Part shown: positions 35,908-50,387 of the stretch, piece after piece
How positions within the stretch are numbered: position 1 is the stretch's first letter
Layout: every line of letters begins with the position of its first letter
NCBI GenBank assembly: GCA_963813335.1
Contig: CAWEYL010000007.1
Location: 1-64,000, forward strand
Source of the DNA: an uncultured Chloroflexia bacterium
Lineage (GTDB): Bacteria; Chloroflexota; Limnocylindria; Limnocylindrales; CSP1-4
Length of the DNA: 64,000 bases
Direction of reading: 5' to 3'
Made by a program: the position numbers and the translations under genes
The notes under the pieces: generated by a model
Told to the model about the DNA's origin: nothing
The model's database searches: none
What the model saw: the letters and a program-made list of their open reading frames with translations, nothing else

Positions 35908-35984
35908 TGGTACCCCCAAGGGGATTCGAACCCCTGATCTCCACCTTGAAAGGGTGGCGTCCTAGGCCTCTAGACGATGGGGGC
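35908..35984 (-). tRNA. tRNA-Glu (anticodon TTC), CCA encoded
   Basis: Cloverleaf with acceptor GCCCCCA/TGGGGGT, anticodon arm CCACC-CTTTCAA-GGTGG, T-arm AGGGG-TTCGAAT-CCCCT and ACCA end. Confidence 0.97.
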
Positions 35985-44730: not shown

Positions 44731-45022
44731 CGATCATTTCCCCAAAAGGGAGGCACGCTGGCCTCGGATGAATGGTTTGCCGAACGGTGAGGGCGACGAT
44801 CCCCGATGCCCTGCCTCCGACCGAGGCTGATGTTGTCAGGGCGGCTAGTACTCGTCCAGTACCGCCGGATGAACCTGACCGCACCAGTCCATCGCGGACT
44901 GTACCAGAACCCAGTCACGTACCGGTGCACGCCGACACCGAGGGTCCTGCCCGCGGCAGTACCAAGGTCCCGACCCCGTGTCGGCGGGCGGTGCACTGGT
45001 TCGCGCGGCTACCATTCGCGCC

Positions 45023-46729
45023 GTGACCGACGCACCCGGCGATCCCCTCGCCTCCTCGATCCGCGCTCGTGCCCGGGCCGAGATCGGCCGCGCCTGGGAG
45101 GCCGCCGTCGCCGACGGCTCGCTGCCCGCCCTCCCGCCGGACGCTCCGCCCGTGGCGATCGAGGTCGAGCGGCCGTCGAACCCGGACCACGGCGACCTGG
45201 CCACCAACCTCGCGATGAAGCTGGCCCGGCCCTCCCGGATGGCACCGCTCGCGATCGCGACGGCACTCGCGGCCGCGGTCGAGCGCGGCGCGACGGCCGA
45301 CCCGACGACGGCGACCATCTCCGGCGCGACCGTGGCCGCGCCCGGGTTCCTGAACCTTCGTCTGGCCGACGCCGCGCTCGAGCGGATGGTGGCGGGGATC
45401 CTCGCCGAGCCCGCCCGCTGGGGCCGGCTCTCGGCTGCGACCCCGCGCGCCGTGAACGTCGAGTTCGTCTCGGCCAACCCGACCGGCCCGCTCCACGTGG
45501 GGAACGCCCGGGGCGCGTTCATCGGCGACCTGCTCAGCCGGGTGTTGGAGGCCGGCGGCCAGCAGGTCACACGCGAGTACTACTTCAACGATTCGGGCGG
45601 GCAGATCCGCAACCTCGGGGCGTCCGTGGCCGCCCTGCGGCGGGGCGACCCGGTCCCGGACGACGGCTACAAGGGCGACTACGTCCACGACCTGGTCGGC
45701 GAGCTGCCGGACGATGTGTGGGCTGCCGCCACCGCCCCCGGCGCCGACGCCGACGGGATCGTCGGGCACTGGGCGGCCGGCCGCGTGCGCGAGGGCATCG
45801 AGGAGAGCCTGACCGCGCTCGGCGTCCGCTTCGATGTCTGGACCAGCGAGGCCCGGCTGCACGACGAGGGCTGGGTCGGGCGCGCGGTCGAGCGCCTCCG
45901 CGAGCGCGGCCACGTCTACGAGTCCGAGGGCGCGGTCTGGTTCCGCTCGACCGACTTCGGCGACGACAAGGACCGGGTGATCTTCCGCTCCAACGGCGAG
46001 CCGACCTACTTCGCCGCCGACATCGGCTACGTGACCGAGAAGTTCAGCCGCGGCTTCGACCACCTGGTCTACATCTGGGGCGCGGACCACCACGGGACCG
46101 TCGCCCGCGTCCGGAACGCCGCCGAGGCGATGGGCTACGAGCGCGAGGCGGTCGAGATGAAGCTCTACTCGTGGGTCCGCTTCGTGCGCGACGGCGAGGA
46201 GGTCTCGATGTCGAAGCGGGCCGGCGAGTTCATCACGCTCGACGACCTGCTGGCCGAGGTGGGGGTCGACGCGGCGCGCTGGTTCTTCGCCTCACGCGCG
46301 GCCACCACCGGGATCGACTTCGACATCGAGCTGGCGAAGAAGCAGTCGAACGAGAACCCCGTCTACTACGTCCAGTACGCCCACGCCCGGATCGCCTCGA
46401 TCGTGCGCAAGGCCGCCGAAGCCGGCCTGGCGCCAGCGGCCACCGTGGACGGCCTGCTGGTCGGGGCGCCGGAGGCCGCGCTCGTGCGCGCCATCGCCCG
46501 CTTCCCGGATGTCGTCGAGGACGCCGTGGCGCTCGAGGAGACGCAGGGCGTCACCGCCTACGCGACCGACCTGGCGACGACCTTCCACGGCTTCTACCGC
46601 GACGCGCGGGTCGTCGATGCCGCGGAACCGGAACGCTCGGCCGGCCGCCTCGCACTGGCGCGCGCGGCCCAGGTCACCCTCGCGAACGCGCTCGGTCTGC
46701 TCGGGATCTCCGCGCCCGAGTCGATGTAG
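45023..46729 (+). CDS. argS: Arginine--tRNA ligase
   Basis: HGDLATN, VEFVSANPTGPLHVGNAR, GADHHG, MSKRAG and NPVYYVQYAHAR. Confidence 0.97.
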   Translation: MTDAPGDPLASSIRARARAEIGRAWEAAVADGSLPALPPDAPPVAIEVERPSNPDHGDLATNLAMKLARPSRMAPLAIATALAAAVERGATADPTTATISGATVAAPGFLNLRLADAALERMVAGILAEPARWGRLSAATPRAVNVEFVSANPTGPLHVGNARGAFIGDLLSRVLEAGGQQVTREYYFNDSGGQIRNLGASVAALRRGDPVPDDGYKGDYVHDLVGELPDDVWAAATAPGADADGIVGHWAAGRVREGIEESLTALGVRFDVWTSEARLHDEGWVGRAVERLRERGHVYESEGAVWFRSTDFGDDKDRVIFRSNGEPTYFAADIGYVTEKFSRGFDHLVYIWGADHHGTVARVRNAAEAMGYEREAVEMKLYSWVRFVRDGEEVSMSKRAGEFITLDDLLAEVGVDAARWFFASRAATTGIDFDIELAKKQSNENPVYYVQYAHARIASIVRKAAEAGLAPAATVDGLLVGAPEAALVRAIARFPDVVEDAVALEETQGVTAYATDLATTFHGFYRDARVVDAAEPERSAGRLALARAAQVTLANALGLLGISAPESM

Positions 46730-46738
46730 CCGAGGGCG

Positions 46739-48031
46739 CTAGCCGGCCAGGCCCAGGACCCCGGCGACGCGCGACATCGTGGCGGCGTCGCTTGCGACGA
46801 GCACCCAGCGGACCTTGCCGCCCTCGCCGGGGAGGACCTGGGCGATCCCCTGCGCCTTGGCCAATGCGGTCGTCGCGGCCGTCTCGAAGTCGGCCGCGTC
46901 CGCGGTCGTGTCCCAGGCGGTCTTGATCGCGACGGCCCAGGCATCGCCCGGCCCGTCGATCACCGCGAGGCGGTCGCCGCCCCAGCCCGCCGCCGCCGCG
47001 TCGGCGTCCGCCTTCGGGACGCCGGAGACGCGCAGCCAGATGCCGTCCTGGAGCTCGCCGAACGAATCGGTCATCGGGACCGTCCAGCCCTTCCCGAGGC
47101 GAGCCGCGATATCGGTCGGCAGCCCGACATCGACCGGGCCCTCGTTGGCCGTGTACTTCTCGGGATGGAGGATCTGCTCGGTCGACTCGGGCATCCGGGC
47201 GTAGAAGTCATCGACGGCGGTCCAGCCGCCGGACAGCTGCGCCGCCTGGACGTAGAACGCGCCGGTCGTGTACGGGTAGGTCAGGGTCTCGGTCATGATC
47301 GGCGGCAGCCTGGCGAGCAGCGCCTGGGTCGCCGGGTCGTTGCCCGCCTTGGCGTACTCGCCCAGCTCGGCCGGGGTCAGGTTGGCCACGGCCCAGTACG
47401 ACATCACGACCGTGGCGTCGCCCTCGAAGATGGCCTGCCGCGCGAGGAACCAGTCGCTCTGGTCCTTCACGCCCTTCTGGTCCTTGAAGACCGTGAAGTT
47501 CTGGTCCTGGAGCGCGTGGGTGTACTCGTGGGCGTAGGTGACCTGCTCGGCCGGGCCGACCCCGCCGGACCGCGAGACCACGAACATCTTGCCCTGGTCG
47601 TCGTCGTAGAACCCGGCCACACCGGCGCCGAGCATCTCGAGGGTCAGCGCGTCGAGGTCCGCGTCCGCGGGCAGCAGGCCGAGCGCCTTGTAGAGCTGCT
47701 CATTCGCGGCCACGATCTCGGGCGGGGTCTGCTTGGCCTGCTCCGCGGCGAGCATCGTCTTGAGCGTGGCCTCGTCGATCACCTCGCGCTCGACCTTGTG
47801 CTTGGCCTGGAGCTCGCGCAGCGTGGCGACCTGGCCCTCGATCTCGTCGAACGTGGCGTTCGCGTCCTGGCTCGCACCGGCCGATGGCGACGCGCCGGAC
47901 GGAGTGGCCGATGGGGCGACGGACGGAGCGACCATCGGCGAGGGGCTCACCGCGGCGGGGTCGCACGCCGCGACCAGCGCAGCGAGCGCGACCACGAGGA
48001 CGACGGAGCGAGTGGCGGAGGGTCGAGACAT
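46739..48031 (-). CDS. Lipoprotein with zincin metallopeptidase motif
   Basis: Lipobox VAAC; AHEYTHALQDQ (HExxH), EGDA, PESTEQILHPEKY and AAAGWGGDR. Confidence 0.8.
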   Translation of the reverse strand: MSRPSATRSVVLVVALAALVAACDPAAVSPSPMVAPSVAPSATPSGASPSAGASQDANATFDEIEGQVATLRELQAKHKVEREVIDEATLKTMLAAEQAKQTPPEIVAANEQLYKALGLLPADADLDALTLEMLGAGVAGFYDDDQGKMFVVSRSGGVGPAEQVTYAHEYTHALQDQNFTVFKDQKGVKDQSDWFLARQAIFEGDATVVMSYWAVANLTPAELGEYAKAGNDPATQALLARLPPIMTETLTYPYTTGAFYVQAAQLSGGWTAVDDFYARMPESTEQILHPEKYTANEGPVDVGLPTDIAARLGKGWTVPMTDSFGELQDGIWLRVSGVPKADADAAAAGWGGDRLAVIDGPGDAWAVAIKTAWDTTADAADFETAATTALAKAQGIAQVLPGEGGKVRWVLVASDAATMSRVAGVLGLAG

Positions 48032-48186
48032 CGCGGCATTCTCGCACGCGGTGGCGTTCGACCCGGATGACGCGATGGTCCTGCCGGCCGAGGCGGCGGG
48101 CCTCGTGGCCCGGACCGCGACCCCACGTGTCGCTTTCTTAACCGGTTGGCCCCTCGATGCTGAATCAGCCCGGCCTAGCGTAGTGA

Positions 48187-48262
48187 TCGGACGAACCCAC
48201 AAGGTTCCATCCTCCCTCCCTCCGACCGGGGGCGCCGATTGGGCAGGCGCCTCCGGTCTTTC
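48187..48262 (+). ncRNA. Candidate small RNA with anti-SD tract and intrinsic terminator
   Basis: TAGCGT -10 at 48176-48181; hairpin GAACC/GGTTC; CATCCTCCCTCCCTCC; hairpin 48224-48258 followed by TTT. Confidence 0.5.
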
Positions 48263-48323
48263 CATGTCCGGGCCATCCCCGATCCGCGAGCCGCCGTGCA
48301 GGGCGCTGTGTCAGAATCGGGGC

Positions 48324-48998
48324 ATGGAGATCACCTGGTACGGACGGAGCTGCGTCCGCCTGCGCGGCCGCGACGCGGTGGTCGTCGCCGACCCCTACCA
48401 ATCGGTCGTCGGTCCGACCGGCCGAGGCATCACGGCCGACATCGTCACCTTCAGCCACCCTGACGACACGAAGCTGCCGCGGGCCAAGGGCAAGCACTCG
48501 CGCGACGGGCACACGCTGCTGCCATCCAGCCTGGACGCCGCATTCGTGCTCGACGGTCCGGGTGAGTACGAGGTCAAGGAGGTCCTGCTGACCGGCGTCC
48601 GCACCTATCGCGATGACGCGAAGGGCGCGGAATCCGGCAAGCAGGTCGCATTCGTGGTCGAGCTCGACGGGCTGCACACGATCCATCTCGGCGACATCGG
48701 CCATCTCCTCTCGGAGGAGAAGCTCGGCGACATCGGCTCGGTGGACATCGCCTGCGTGCCGCTCGGCGGCGCGCTGAGCCCGACCCGCGCGGCGGCGATC
48801 GTGGCCCAGCTCGATCCGAGCATCGTCGTGCCCATGCCGCTCTGCGACGACGACGCCGACTGCGCCGAGGCACTCGCCAAGTTCTTCCACGAGATGGGCG
48901 CGGAGCCGACGACGCAGCCGAAGCTGTCGGTCAGCTTCTCCACGCTCCCCGCCGAGACCGCGGTCGTCCTGCTCGAGTCGCGCGGCAAGCAGGTCTGA
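48324..48998 (+). CDS. MBL-fold protein (Lactamase_B_3-like), metal motif partly degenerate
   Basis: MEITWYG.SC, DPY, DIVTFSH, GPGEYEV, HLGD.GH and VVPM. Confidence 0.85.
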   Translation: MEITWYGRSCVRLRGRDAVVVADPYQSVVGPTGRGITADIVTFSHPDDTKLPRAKGKHSRDGHTLLPSSLDAAFVLDGPGEYEVKEVLLTGVRTYRDDAKGAESGKQVAFVVELDGLHTIHLGDIGHLLSEEKLGDIGSVDIACVPLGGALSPTRAAAIVAQLDPSIVVPMPLCDDDADCAEALAKFFHEMGAEPTTQPKLSVSFSTLPAETAVVLLESRGKQV

Positions 48999-49016: not shown

Positions 49017-50387
49017 TCAGGACCGGTCGAGGACGACCCGCCCGCGCTTGATGACGGTCCGCACGAGGTCGGCGGCCGGCCAGTACGGGATCTGGGCCGT
49101 GGTGGGAACCCGCCAGACCGTCAGGTCCGCCGACTTGCCCGGCTCGATCGACCCGATCTCGTCGGCGAGGCCGAGCGCCTGCGCGGCGTTGATCGTCACC
49201 GCGCTCAGGACCTCGTCGGGGGTCATGCGCAGGCCGACGCACGCCGCGGTCATCGCCAGCGGCAGGCTCGCGGTCGGCGAGGTGCCGGGGTTGAAGTCGG
49301 TCCCGATGGCGACGGGCACGCCGCGCTCGATGAACGTCCGCGCCGGGGCGTGGTGCTCCTTCATCAGGAACCAGGTCGTCACCGGGAGCAGGGTCGCGAC
49401 GACCGGCTCGCCCGCGTCCGCGGCCGCCGCGAGGGCGGCGATCCCGGCGTCGGACGGGGTCGCGAGGTGGTCCGCCGAGGCGGCACCGAGCTCCGCGGCC
49501 AGCTCCGCGCCACCGGACGGGGCGAGCTCATCGGCATGGAGGCGCACGCCCATCCCGTAGCCCGCGGCCGCCACCAGGATCCGGCGCGACTGATCGGCGC
49601 TGAAGACGCCGTCCTCGCAGAAGACGTCGCAGAAGCGGGCCCGGCCGTGGGCCGCGATCCCGGGCAGCTGCTCCTCGATGACTGATCGGACGTACGCCTC
49701 CGTGCCCGCGGGCCGGGCGCGGAACTCCGGGGCCACCGCGTGCGCCCCGAGGTAGGTGGGGACCACGTCGATCGGGCCCTCGGTCCCCAGCCGGAAGGCG
49801 GCGTCGACCAGCCGGATCTCCGTCTCGAGGTCCAGCCCGTAGCCGGACTTCGCCTCCACGGTCGTGACGCCGTGGCCCAGCATCTCGTCGAGCCAGCGCC
49901 GGCCGTGGGCCAGCAGGTCGTCGGTCGTCGCGGCGCGCGTCGCGGCGACCGTCGAGAGGATCCCGCCGCCCGCGGCGAGGATGTCGAGGTAGCCCGCGCC
50001 GGCCTGGCGCATGACGAGCTCGCCCTCGCGGGAGCCGCCGAACAGCAGGTGGGTGTGCGGGTCGATGAGGCCCGGCGTGACCGAGCCGCCGCGGGCGTCG
50101 ACCCGGGCGAAGCGGGCCAGCGGCAGCCCGTCCGCCTCGACGATCGCCTCGACGTCCGCGCGCGGTCCGACCGCCACGATGCGCCCGTCCCAGCACGCCA
50201 CGACGGGCGCGTCGGGGGCGTCCGGCCCGGTCGCCGGGTCGGCCCGCAGCCGGTCGACATCGCCCTGGTCGGGACCGGCCCGGACGCCGCCCGCCAGCGT
50301 CGCGATCTCGGCCGCGCCGACGATCAGCAGGCCGGGCGGGTTCTCGTCGGAGCGACCCCCGTGGATCAGCCGGAACCCGCCGCTCAC
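49017..50387 (-). CDS. hutI: Imidazolonepropionase
   Basis: PGLIDPHTH, GGGILSTV.ATR, EAKSGYGL, HADEL and TDFNPG. Confidence 0.96.
   Translation of the reverse strand: MSGGFRLIHGGRSDENPPGLLIVGAAEIATLAGGVRAGPDQGDVDRLRADPATGPDAPDAPVVACWDGRIVAVGPRADVEAIVEADGLPLARFARVDARGGSVTPGLIDPHTHLLFGGSREGELVMRQAGAGYLDILAAGGGILSTVAATRAATTDDLLAHGRRWLDEMLGHGVTTVEAKSGYGLDLETEIRLVDAAFRLGTEGPIDVVPTYLGAHAVAPEFRARPAGTEAYVRSVIEEQLPGIAAHGRARFCDVFCEDGVFSADQSRRILVAAAGYGMGVRLHADELAPSGGAELAAELGAASADHLATPSDAGIAALAAAADAGEPVVATLLPVTTWFLMKEHHAPARTFIERGVPVAIGTDFNPGTSPTASLPLAMTAACVGLRMTPDEVLSAVTINAAQALGLADEIGSIEPGKSADLTVWRVPTTAQIPYWPAADLVRTVIKRGRVVLDRS

Follow-up and report, generated by a model that had tools for sequence, protein, structure and literature searches.

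A conserved candidate small RNA gene with an anti-Shine-Dalgarno-like tract in uncultured Limnocylindria (Chloroflexota)

Does the DNA between two divergent genes of an uncultured Chloroflexia bacterium (Chloroflexota; Limnocylindria; Limnocylindrales; CSP1-4) hold a stand-alone gene for a small RNA (sRNA), and if so, what might that RNA do? The stretch analyzed here (the window) comprises the first 64,000 nucleotides (nt) of contig CAWEYL010000007.1, which is contig C7 of a source genome of 2.54 Mb with a GC content of 72% and a completeness of 81%. The proposed sRNA unit separates a minus-strand lipoprotein-like gene (46739-48031) from a plus-strand gene for an MBL-fold hydrolase (48324-48998), and between these genes the GC fraction falls to 0.60 (48120-48199) against 0.72 genome-wide. 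An initial annotation had read this region as encoding an undescribed plus-strand sRNA of ~75 nt with its own transcription, a claim that comparison among relatives supports through a conserved promoter, covarying hairpins and persistence through inversions. The best overall explanation of the locus, to which we assign a probability of about 0.6, is a stand-alone plus-strand sRNA gene whose product acts against Shine-Dalgarno (SD) sites. For its two components our confidence differs: we predict with high confidence that the locus is an independent, structured, plus-strand sRNA gene, and we slightly favor anti-SD pairing as its mechanism.

Conservation and structure of the predicted RNA

If the locus encodes a functional RNA, its relatives should carry it, and they do: both the CU-rich tract and the hairpin that follows it are conserved. 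In a BLAST search with the intergenic region, 33 of 36 genomes of the same genus gave a match in which only 48128-48271 aligned, at 78-90% identity, the flanks not being conserved. Exact matching with a degenerate pattern of the 3' hairpin (hairpin 2) returned at least 119 loci, and all 80 titles among the pattern matches listed name Chloroflexota or Limnocylindria/Limnocylindrales metagenome-assembled genomes (MAGs). A covariance model built from 65 sequences (R1), which matches the window at 48186-48266 with 106 bits, found the element in 104 of 108 genomes (26 genera) of the window's own family, f1, and in 9 of 10 genomes of family f3 of the same class. Across a phylum-wide sample of 151 genomes from 45 families, R1 matched all three f1 genomes, gave one marginal match outside f1 and f3 (1 of 10 genomes in family f16; E 0.0037, 27.5 bits) and none in the remaining families of that sample.

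The sister family f2, with streamlined genomes of ~1 Mb, carries a more distant form. BLAST with the window's intergenic region matched none of 24 f2 genomes, and R1 gave a single marginal match there. This match shares the build of the f1 element and, in a syntenic arrangement, immediately precedes the hydrolase gene. Searching by BLAST with this f2 form recovered a divergent syntenic version in 31 of 42 f2 genomes, including 8 of the 9 high-quality ones. The element thus appears close to universal in three families of Limnocylindria, and since these include genomes streamlined to ~1 Mb, it probably performs a core function.

The predicted sRNA spans 48186-48262 on the plus strand (~75 nt), its start being placed 5-8 nt after the -10 box and its end after a short U run. 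Its modules are, in order, a 5' hairpin (hairpin 1, 48193-48207; GAACC, loop CACAA, GGTTC), an unpaired CU tract (48208-48223), hairpin 2 (48224-48258) and a TTT run (48259-48261) that would form a weak intrinsic-terminator tail. Hairpin 2 consists of a 13-base-pair (bp) stem (48224-48236 / 48246-48258), 92% complementary owing to one G-T pair, closed by a 9-nt loop, GAUUGGGCA (48237-48245). An 83-nt plus-strand stretch folds at -38.5 kcal/mol (z = -3.15), with none of 200 shuffles folding as well, and this fold contains both of the expected hairpins, with the CU tract unpaired. On the minus strand the intergenic region has no folding advantage over shuffled sequences (z = -0.10).

Base-pair covariation is consistent with selection on this structure. 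Over 95 distinct sequences (103 matches, taken from model-based hits that include distant genera), pairing holds in 95.9% of cells, and changes on both sides are seen in 14 of 19 pairs, compared with a shuffled mean of 5.7; none of 500 shuffles reached the observed pairing values, and sliding the 3' partners by 1-3 columns lowered pairing to 31-54%. The CU tract had been described as lying between two hairpins, and both of these covary. In hairpin 1, 86% of cells are paired and all 6 modelled pairs have changed on both sides somewhere in the family; in hairpin 2, 100% of cells are paired, with compensatory changes in 8 of the 13 pairs among the model-based hits. A plain MAFFT alignment of 95 distinct sequences, selected through BLAST or the hairpin pattern and more biased than the model-based hits, likewise contains no broken pair in hairpin 2, where the varying pairs are distributed as GU 38/AU 38/GC 19, GC 79/GU 16 and CG 73/UG 21/UA 1. 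Read from the minus strand, the G-U pairs of this hairpin would turn into A-C mismatches, and the RNA is therefore taken to be a plus-strand product.

Lineages differ in how the modules are built. Hairpin 1 varies in length and partner sequence, always using the GGUUCC just before the CU tract, and other lineages have a longer hairpin-1 stem with a further CCUCC in the loop. In family f3 the stem of hairpin 2 is wholly replaced (CGAGCGCCGGUGUC / GGCACCGGCGCUCG), with the loop AUUGGGC and the tract CCCUCCCUCC kept, and in f2 the loop retains GGGCAU; across families, therefore, a GGGC(A) loop stays constant while the stems change. The U tail reads TTTCC in relatives, or CTCCTTTT in other lineages, and is 4 nt long in some.

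The CU tract itself (CAUCCUCCCUCCCUCC, or CATCCTCCCTCCCTCC as DNA) holds three overlapping CCUCC words. Among 95 distinct homologues, CCUCC occurs in 95, CUCCCUCC in 92 and CUCCCUCCCUC in 89; the tract has a median unpaired probability of 0.79, and an 11-nt single-stranded core is invariant. The number of overlapping CCUCC words per RNA ranges from 1 to 6 in f1, several lineages of which have an extra CCUCC(U) in the hairpin-1 loop, and f2 RNAs carry three CU sites (hairpin-1 loop, linker and 3' tail). The 3' end of the source genome's 16S rRNA is GGATCACCTCCTTTCT, and the CU tract therefore repeats the anti-SD core. Trans-acting anti-SD RNAs as a class carry a conserved and accessible seed that can pair with the SD core, and such a seed is found here.

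Promoter architecture and independence from neighboring genes

What would drive transcription of such an RNA? The block at 48128-48185 is predicted to be a sigma-70-type promoter that sets the 5' end of the sRNA at ~48186-48189. Its layout was examined in a survey of 139 loci, some of them duplicates of the same genomes (125 distinct among 138 extracted sequences), and consists of TTTCTTAA, 12 nt, T(T/C)Gnnn, 16 nt and TANNNT at fixed spacing. The -10 hexamer TAGCGT (48176-48181, plus strand) had been assigned to the TANNNT type, and that assignment fits the family: 18 TANNNT variants occur among the homologues, with T1, A2 and T6 invariant and the middle three bases varying. Variation of this kind is characteristic of a -10 box, so the hexamer is best taken as a genuine -10 element and not as part of an RNA helix. 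The -35-like hexamer TCGATG (48154-48159, plus strand) lies 16 nt upstream, a position at which relatives carry TTGGGT, TTGGTC, TTGCCC or TTGTGG. Unlike the fixed spacing within the promoter, the distance from the -10 box to hairpin 2 is free, ranging from 39 to 61 nt among homologues. The reading of 48128-48185 as a promoter follows from the fixed spacing, the T-A-N-N-N-T pattern and the TTGnnn-type -35 hexamer 16 nt upstream.

Two further conserved elements belong to this layout. The upstream word TTTCTTAA (48134-48141, plus strand; approximately -54 to -47) is kept in nearly all homologues, and a TTTCTTAA-like word stands exactly 42 nt before the TANNNT box in 112 of the 139 loci; the other 27 mostly have a one-base shift or a variant word, as judged by eye. 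In the 2.54-Mb source genome TTTCTTAA occurs once, as does CCTCCCTCCCTCC, and because of this single occurrence TTTCTTAA is not a general promoter word; it may be a UP-like element or an activator site. Between -35 and -10, the spacer motif TGAATC (48161-48166, plus strand) is conserved at a fixed position, and TTCAC is found in other lineages. The TGAATCA word is near-palindromic (48158-48169, plus strand), with flanking bases that covary by eye in several relatives (GCTGAATCAGC, CCGTGAATCACGG, CCATGAATCGTGG), and it may be an operator.

Contig ends at 48121-48129 in three RNA runs, together with the palindrome flanking TGAATCA, raised the idea of a longer RNA of ~140 nt starting near 48128. 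This was rejected in favor of a promoter, given the fixed spacing, the TANNNT pattern and the TTGnnn-type -35; contigs ending at the edge of a block common to many strains are an expected outcome of assembly, and a stretch that no contig covers carries no weight as evidence. A terminator-like site at 48117-48133 was also set aside: by eye its upstream arm is not conserved, and no plus-strand gene ends there.

The individual features named by the initial annotation (TAGCGT, hairpin 1, the CU tract, hairpin 2 with TTT, and an upstream palindrome) all lie where it had placed them, and a bracketing inverted repeat starts one base off. Not all of them appear to be parts of the unit. The palindrome AACCGGTT (48140-48147), which had been listed upstream of the hairpins, is present in the window and not conserved, varying to AACCGCTT, AATCGCTT and AACCTTCT in relatives. 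The same is true of the 10-bp inverted repeat (48106-48115 / 48266-48275), which had been thought to enclose the unit. Repeats of at least 8 bp occur in only 5 of 125 distinct flank pairs; the window's 10-mer TGGCCCGGAC is found in no relative, and the other four repeat-bearing pairs carry different words.

Is the unit, then, a gene in its own right or an appendage of its neighbors? In the 139 loci the hydrolase gene lies downstream and co-oriented in 114, downstream and inverted in 19 and upstream in 2, and was not found in 4; in the two loci with an upstream hydrolase gene (L026, L093) the sRNA unit itself is flipped. The lipoprotein gene takes the upstream, divergent position in 91 loci and lies downstream in the two flipped ones; it was not found in 46, most of which (39 loci, L101-L139) span only ~300 nt of flank. 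Where the hydrolase gene is inverted it stays adjacent (L008, L011, L014, L017, L019, L020 and others), a pattern of local inversions within a fixed neighborhood.

A genome of another genus, G157, carries five tandem copies within ~1.1 kb (L170, G157:C1:3556400-3558000), each with its own promoter and hairpin. These promoters combine TTTCTT(A/C)A or a one-letter variant with TTGTGG or TTGTCC, 16 nt, and TATTGT, TACTGT or TATGCT, and the last copy abuts the hydrolase gene. In one of the copies the CU tract is degenerate and the loop differs. Conserved promoter geometry, persistence through inversions and a flip, and tandem copies are together what an independent unit for a trans-acting sRNA should display, the transcript here being a predicted one. 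Comparison among homologues thus delimits the putative gene and bears out its strand, structure, conservation and independence, with the transcript ends placed by prediction.

Sequences from RNA libraries include the element. RNA-labelled runs of several studies share sampled 31-mers of the region at a fraction of 0.23-0.35, approximately the share that the conserved core takes of the 211-nt query. Metatranscriptome contigs from four RNA runs, belonging to four studies, cover 48125-48360, and one contig of 78 nt spans ~48185-48262. The element is therefore present in RNA libraries, short of proof of a discrete transcript.

Possible mechanism and competing explanations

How might the RNA act? 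In the mechanism that we propose, the sRNA would be transcribed from its own sigma-70-type promoter with the upstream TTTCTTAA element, and transcription would end at the GC-rich 13-bp hairpin with its short U tail. The resulting RNA would consist of a 5' hairpin, an unpaired CUCCCUCCCUC tract that echoes the CCUCC core at the 3' end of 16S rRNA, and, on the 3' side, a hairpin whose conserved loop contains GGGC(A). The CU tract would pair in trans with the SD/ribosome-binding sites of mRNAs, and this pairing would keep the 30S subunit from binding, with no need of Hfq, in the manner of the C-rich seed sRNAs of other high-GC or Gram-positive bacteria.

The initial annotation had suggested that such an RNA could selectively silence SD-led genes in a partly leaderless genome, and the source genome does use both SD-led and leaderless initiation. 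TANNNT boxes ending 6, 7, 8 and 9 nt before candidate start codons number 116, 67, 32 and 40, against a background of ~8, and GGAGG peaks 4-10 nt before candidate start codons. With crude gene calls, the leaderless signature is found in 255 of 1861 genes (~14%) and a 5-mer SD in 566 of 1861 (~30%). Searches of this genome turned up no Hfq, CsrA or ProQ, although at a completeness of 81% their absence is no proof.

Several points weigh against a stand-alone anti-SD sRNA. Some of the RNA-library contigs extend over the promoter and the following gene; the contigs may derive from DNA, and they give neither strand, ends nor level. The covariation alignment was fitted to the model, which favors structure, and most close sequences were chosen by a pattern that fixes 30 of the 35 hairpin positions and leaves five free, the others having been chosen by BLAST. 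Of the features of an intrinsic terminator, the GC-rich 13-bp stem is present, but the U run is only 3 nt long and a consensus terminator scan called no terminator there; family f2 homologues lack the U run. Duplex energies at 1850 crude gene starts are continuous and contain no outlier (mean -11.2, best non-self -27.9 kcal/mol), no ribosome-binding site in the source genome has 11 nt or more of complementarity, and 9-mer complements are scattered. Anti-SD pairing also leaves the strong conservation of the GGGC(A) loop unaccounted for. Finally, strict adjacency to the same MBL-fold gene across f1, f2 and f3 hints at a local, possibly cis, relationship, and a local relationship with this gene, for example through transcriptional interference, may exist.

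Candidates that could have extended the picture were examined and rejected. The sole 12-nt complement in the target search, at C1:262535, is embedded in long open frames of both strands and so is not a clear target. A second CU-rich sRNA candidate in the source genome (G000:C1:405680-405730; ~780-830 of L203) is conserved weakly and partially, in 11 of 30 same-genus genomes and mostly over a different sub-stretch; it is built of a small hairpin, CCAUCCUCCCUCCCC and another hairpin, and it adjoins a gene start. A search of the genome for complements of the hairpin-2 loop gave no meaningful partner, TGCCCAATC occurring once elsewhere in what is apparently coding sequence.

The most serious rival is an RNA that binds or sequesters a protein, in which the CCUCC words and the GGGC(A) loop would be recognition sites and a protein would be titrated or delivered with no pairing to mRNA. 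Possible binders of this kind include KH-domain poly(C)-type proteins, cold-shock proteins and Rho. A loop that is kept while its stem is fully replaced is typical of protein or tertiary contacts, the RNAs carry several CCUCC words each (1-6 in f1, three sites in f2), and neither a specific mRNA target nor a meaningful partner for the loop emerged from the source-genome searches. Since the invariant loop lacks a notable complementary partner and is not explained by anti-SD pairing, a protein partner has to be taken seriously. However, no candidate protein has been identified, CsrA, Hfq and ProQ being among those not found, and CCUCC is the exact anti-SD core in a genome that uses GGAGG, so that base pairing needs no extra assumption; we consider the protein-binding explanation unlikely, if clearly the strongest of the alternatives.

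The other rivals deny the RNA a role in trans, or any role. The element could be a cis-acting leader or attenuator of the MBL-fold gene, working by read-through or by interference from the sRNA promoter. Consistent with this, 35-250 nt separate the element from the gene in most of the 114 loci in which the gene follows it on the same strand, the two are adjacent in all three families, the U tail is weak or missing and RNA-library contigs continue from the element into the gene. Yet 19 loci have the gene in inverted orientation and two have the unit flipped, G157 has five tandem promoter-plus-hairpin copies, and a conserved leaderless promoter belonging to the gene itself separates the hairpin from the ATG in 84 of 106 distinct upstream regions; a cis role would also leave the invariance of the CU tract unexplained, and we regard it as quite improbable.

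Still less probable is a function confined to DNA, either a promoter/operator architecture or a bidirectional terminator, with an RNA product of no consequence. The fixed spacing within 48128-48185 does mark that block clearly as promoter or operator, but selection is also visible downstream of the -10 box, in the compensatory stem changes, the strand-specific tolerance of G-U pairs and the invariant 11-nt core.

A function on the minus strand, finally, is largely refuted and scarcely credible. There, the sequence reads GGAGGGAGGGAGGATG followed by an 11-codon frame, which could represent a strong SD (GGAGGGAGGGAGG) with the mini-open reading frame MEPCGFVRSLR, or a leader of the divergent surface-protein gene. 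That frame had been raised as a possible conserved unit in place of the sRNA, and it is not one: its ATG is missing in 32 of 123 distinct sequences, the peptides range from 3 to >15 amino acids, and there is no conservation beyond the RNA constraint. The G-U pairs of hairpin 2 become A-C mismatches and the fold is no better than random on this strand, the divergent gene apparently has a -10 box of its own six nt ahead of the start codon, and two loci have the unit flipped with respect to that gene.

The stand-alone anti-SD sRNA might also be extended to a class-wide governor of translation. As a mimic of the 16S tail with multiple CCUCC words, the RNA would compete with ribosomes for SD sites and, when induced via TTTCTTAA, would shift translation from SD-led to leaderless mRNAs, the GGGC(A) loop serving as a second site for a protein or RNA. 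Leaderless mRNAs would make up at least ~12% of genes in the source genome, the two flanking genes among them. This extension is speculative and, in our estimate, improbable.

Genomic setting, known relatives and significance

The genes on both sides appear to have promoters of their own. The downstream gene (48324-48998, plus strand) encodes an MBL-fold hydrolase of the Lactamase_B_3 type and is preceded by an extended -10 element outside the sRNA (48307-48326, plus strand: TGTG-T-CAGAAT, 6 nt, ATG). The arrangement TGn(n)-nAnAAT (TGTG-n-CAGAAT), 6-7 nt and start codon is the one that recurs in the 84 of 106 upstream regions, and the f2 hydrolase gene likewise has its own extended -10. Since this element ends 6-7 nt before the start codon, the hydrolase mRNA is probably leaderless and not dependent on the sRNA promoter. 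The upstream divergent gene (46739-48031, minus strand) encodes a lipoprotein-like or surface-lipoprotein-like protein that matches no Pfam family and resembles the Hvo_1808 surface proteins only below threshold. Its putative -10 (48029-48046, minus strand: TGC-GAGAAT, 6 nt, ATG), read from the window alone, agrees in geometry with the genome-wide TANNNT peak 6-9 nt before start codons, and this gene is probably also leaderless, which would place the sRNA gene between two leaderless genes.

Further out lie an arginyl-tRNA synthetase gene (44978-46729, plus strand) and an imidazolonepropionase-like amidohydrolase gene (49017-50387, minus strand). Long overlapping shadow open reading frames surround both, as is typical of DNA with 72% GC.

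Is this RNA a member of a family already described? Rfam 15 contains no relevant match, whether for the whole window at gathering scores, for the region at E<=10 or for seven divergent homologue loci at E<=1, so that a comparison proposed by the initial annotation leaves the RNA without a known family. A tRNA gene (35911-35984, minus strand) is the sole match at gathering score in the 64-kb window. In full-text literature, subscription-only articles excluded, no paper was found that describes an sRNA in Limnocylindria or an anti-SD sRNA in Chloroflexi.

The closest functional analogues appear to be the cuckoo RNAs of Alphaproteobacteria (alpha-r14; CcsR1-4 = RSs0680a-d, NfeR1, SmelA075 and others). 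The published account describes 2-4 hairpins side by side, every loop holding CCUCCUCCC, an occurrence often in several or tandem copies with a conserved genomic neighborhood, and binding of Hfq by RSs0680a (PMC4615179). Set beside that account, the Limnocylindria element shares repeated unpaired CU-rich anti-SD-like words, modular hairpins, a conserved neighborhood and, in G157, tandem copies; the f2 homologues also place CCUCCC in the hairpin-1 loop. Unlike the cuckoo RNAs, the f1 RNAs carry their motif, CUCCCUCCCUC, in the linker between two hairpins and have GAUUGGGCA as the hairpin-2 loop, so that the word falls outside the loops that define the group. The element differs further in its second conserved loop word, GGGC(A), in its phylum, in having no Rfam match and in coming from an 81%-complete genome in which Hfq was not found, whereas RSs0680a is reported to bind Hfq.

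Two other groups of RNAs share the idea of a C-rich seed. The 6C RNA of Actinobacteria (RF01066) is small, high in GC and Hfq-independent, with C-rich unpaired stretches thought to pair with G-rich mRNA sites. Its C runs lie in two hairpin loops, compared with the loops CACAA and GAUUGGGCA here, and it belongs to another taxon, with no Rfam match linking the two. RsaE/RoxS of Firmicutes similarly pair with SD regions through single-stranded, C-rich seeds, and they do so independently of Hfq. Their seeds are CCCC/UCCC, compared with CUCCCUCCCUC here, and they are found in another phylum and match the element in neither Rfam sequence nor structure.

Limnocylindria are an abundant uncultured class of Chloroflexota in soil, peat and freshwater. 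The element described here is a conserved, previously undescribed sRNA gene family of this class, of a known functional kind, and its covariance model is ready for annotating Limnocylindria MAGs. It also provides a defined promoter architecture for an uncultured lineage, and it allows C-rich riboregulation, apparently independent of Hfq, to be tested in a genome where SD-led and leaderless initiation occur side by side. Should the CU tract act broadly on SD sites, control by this sRNA could connect to the choice of initiation mode.

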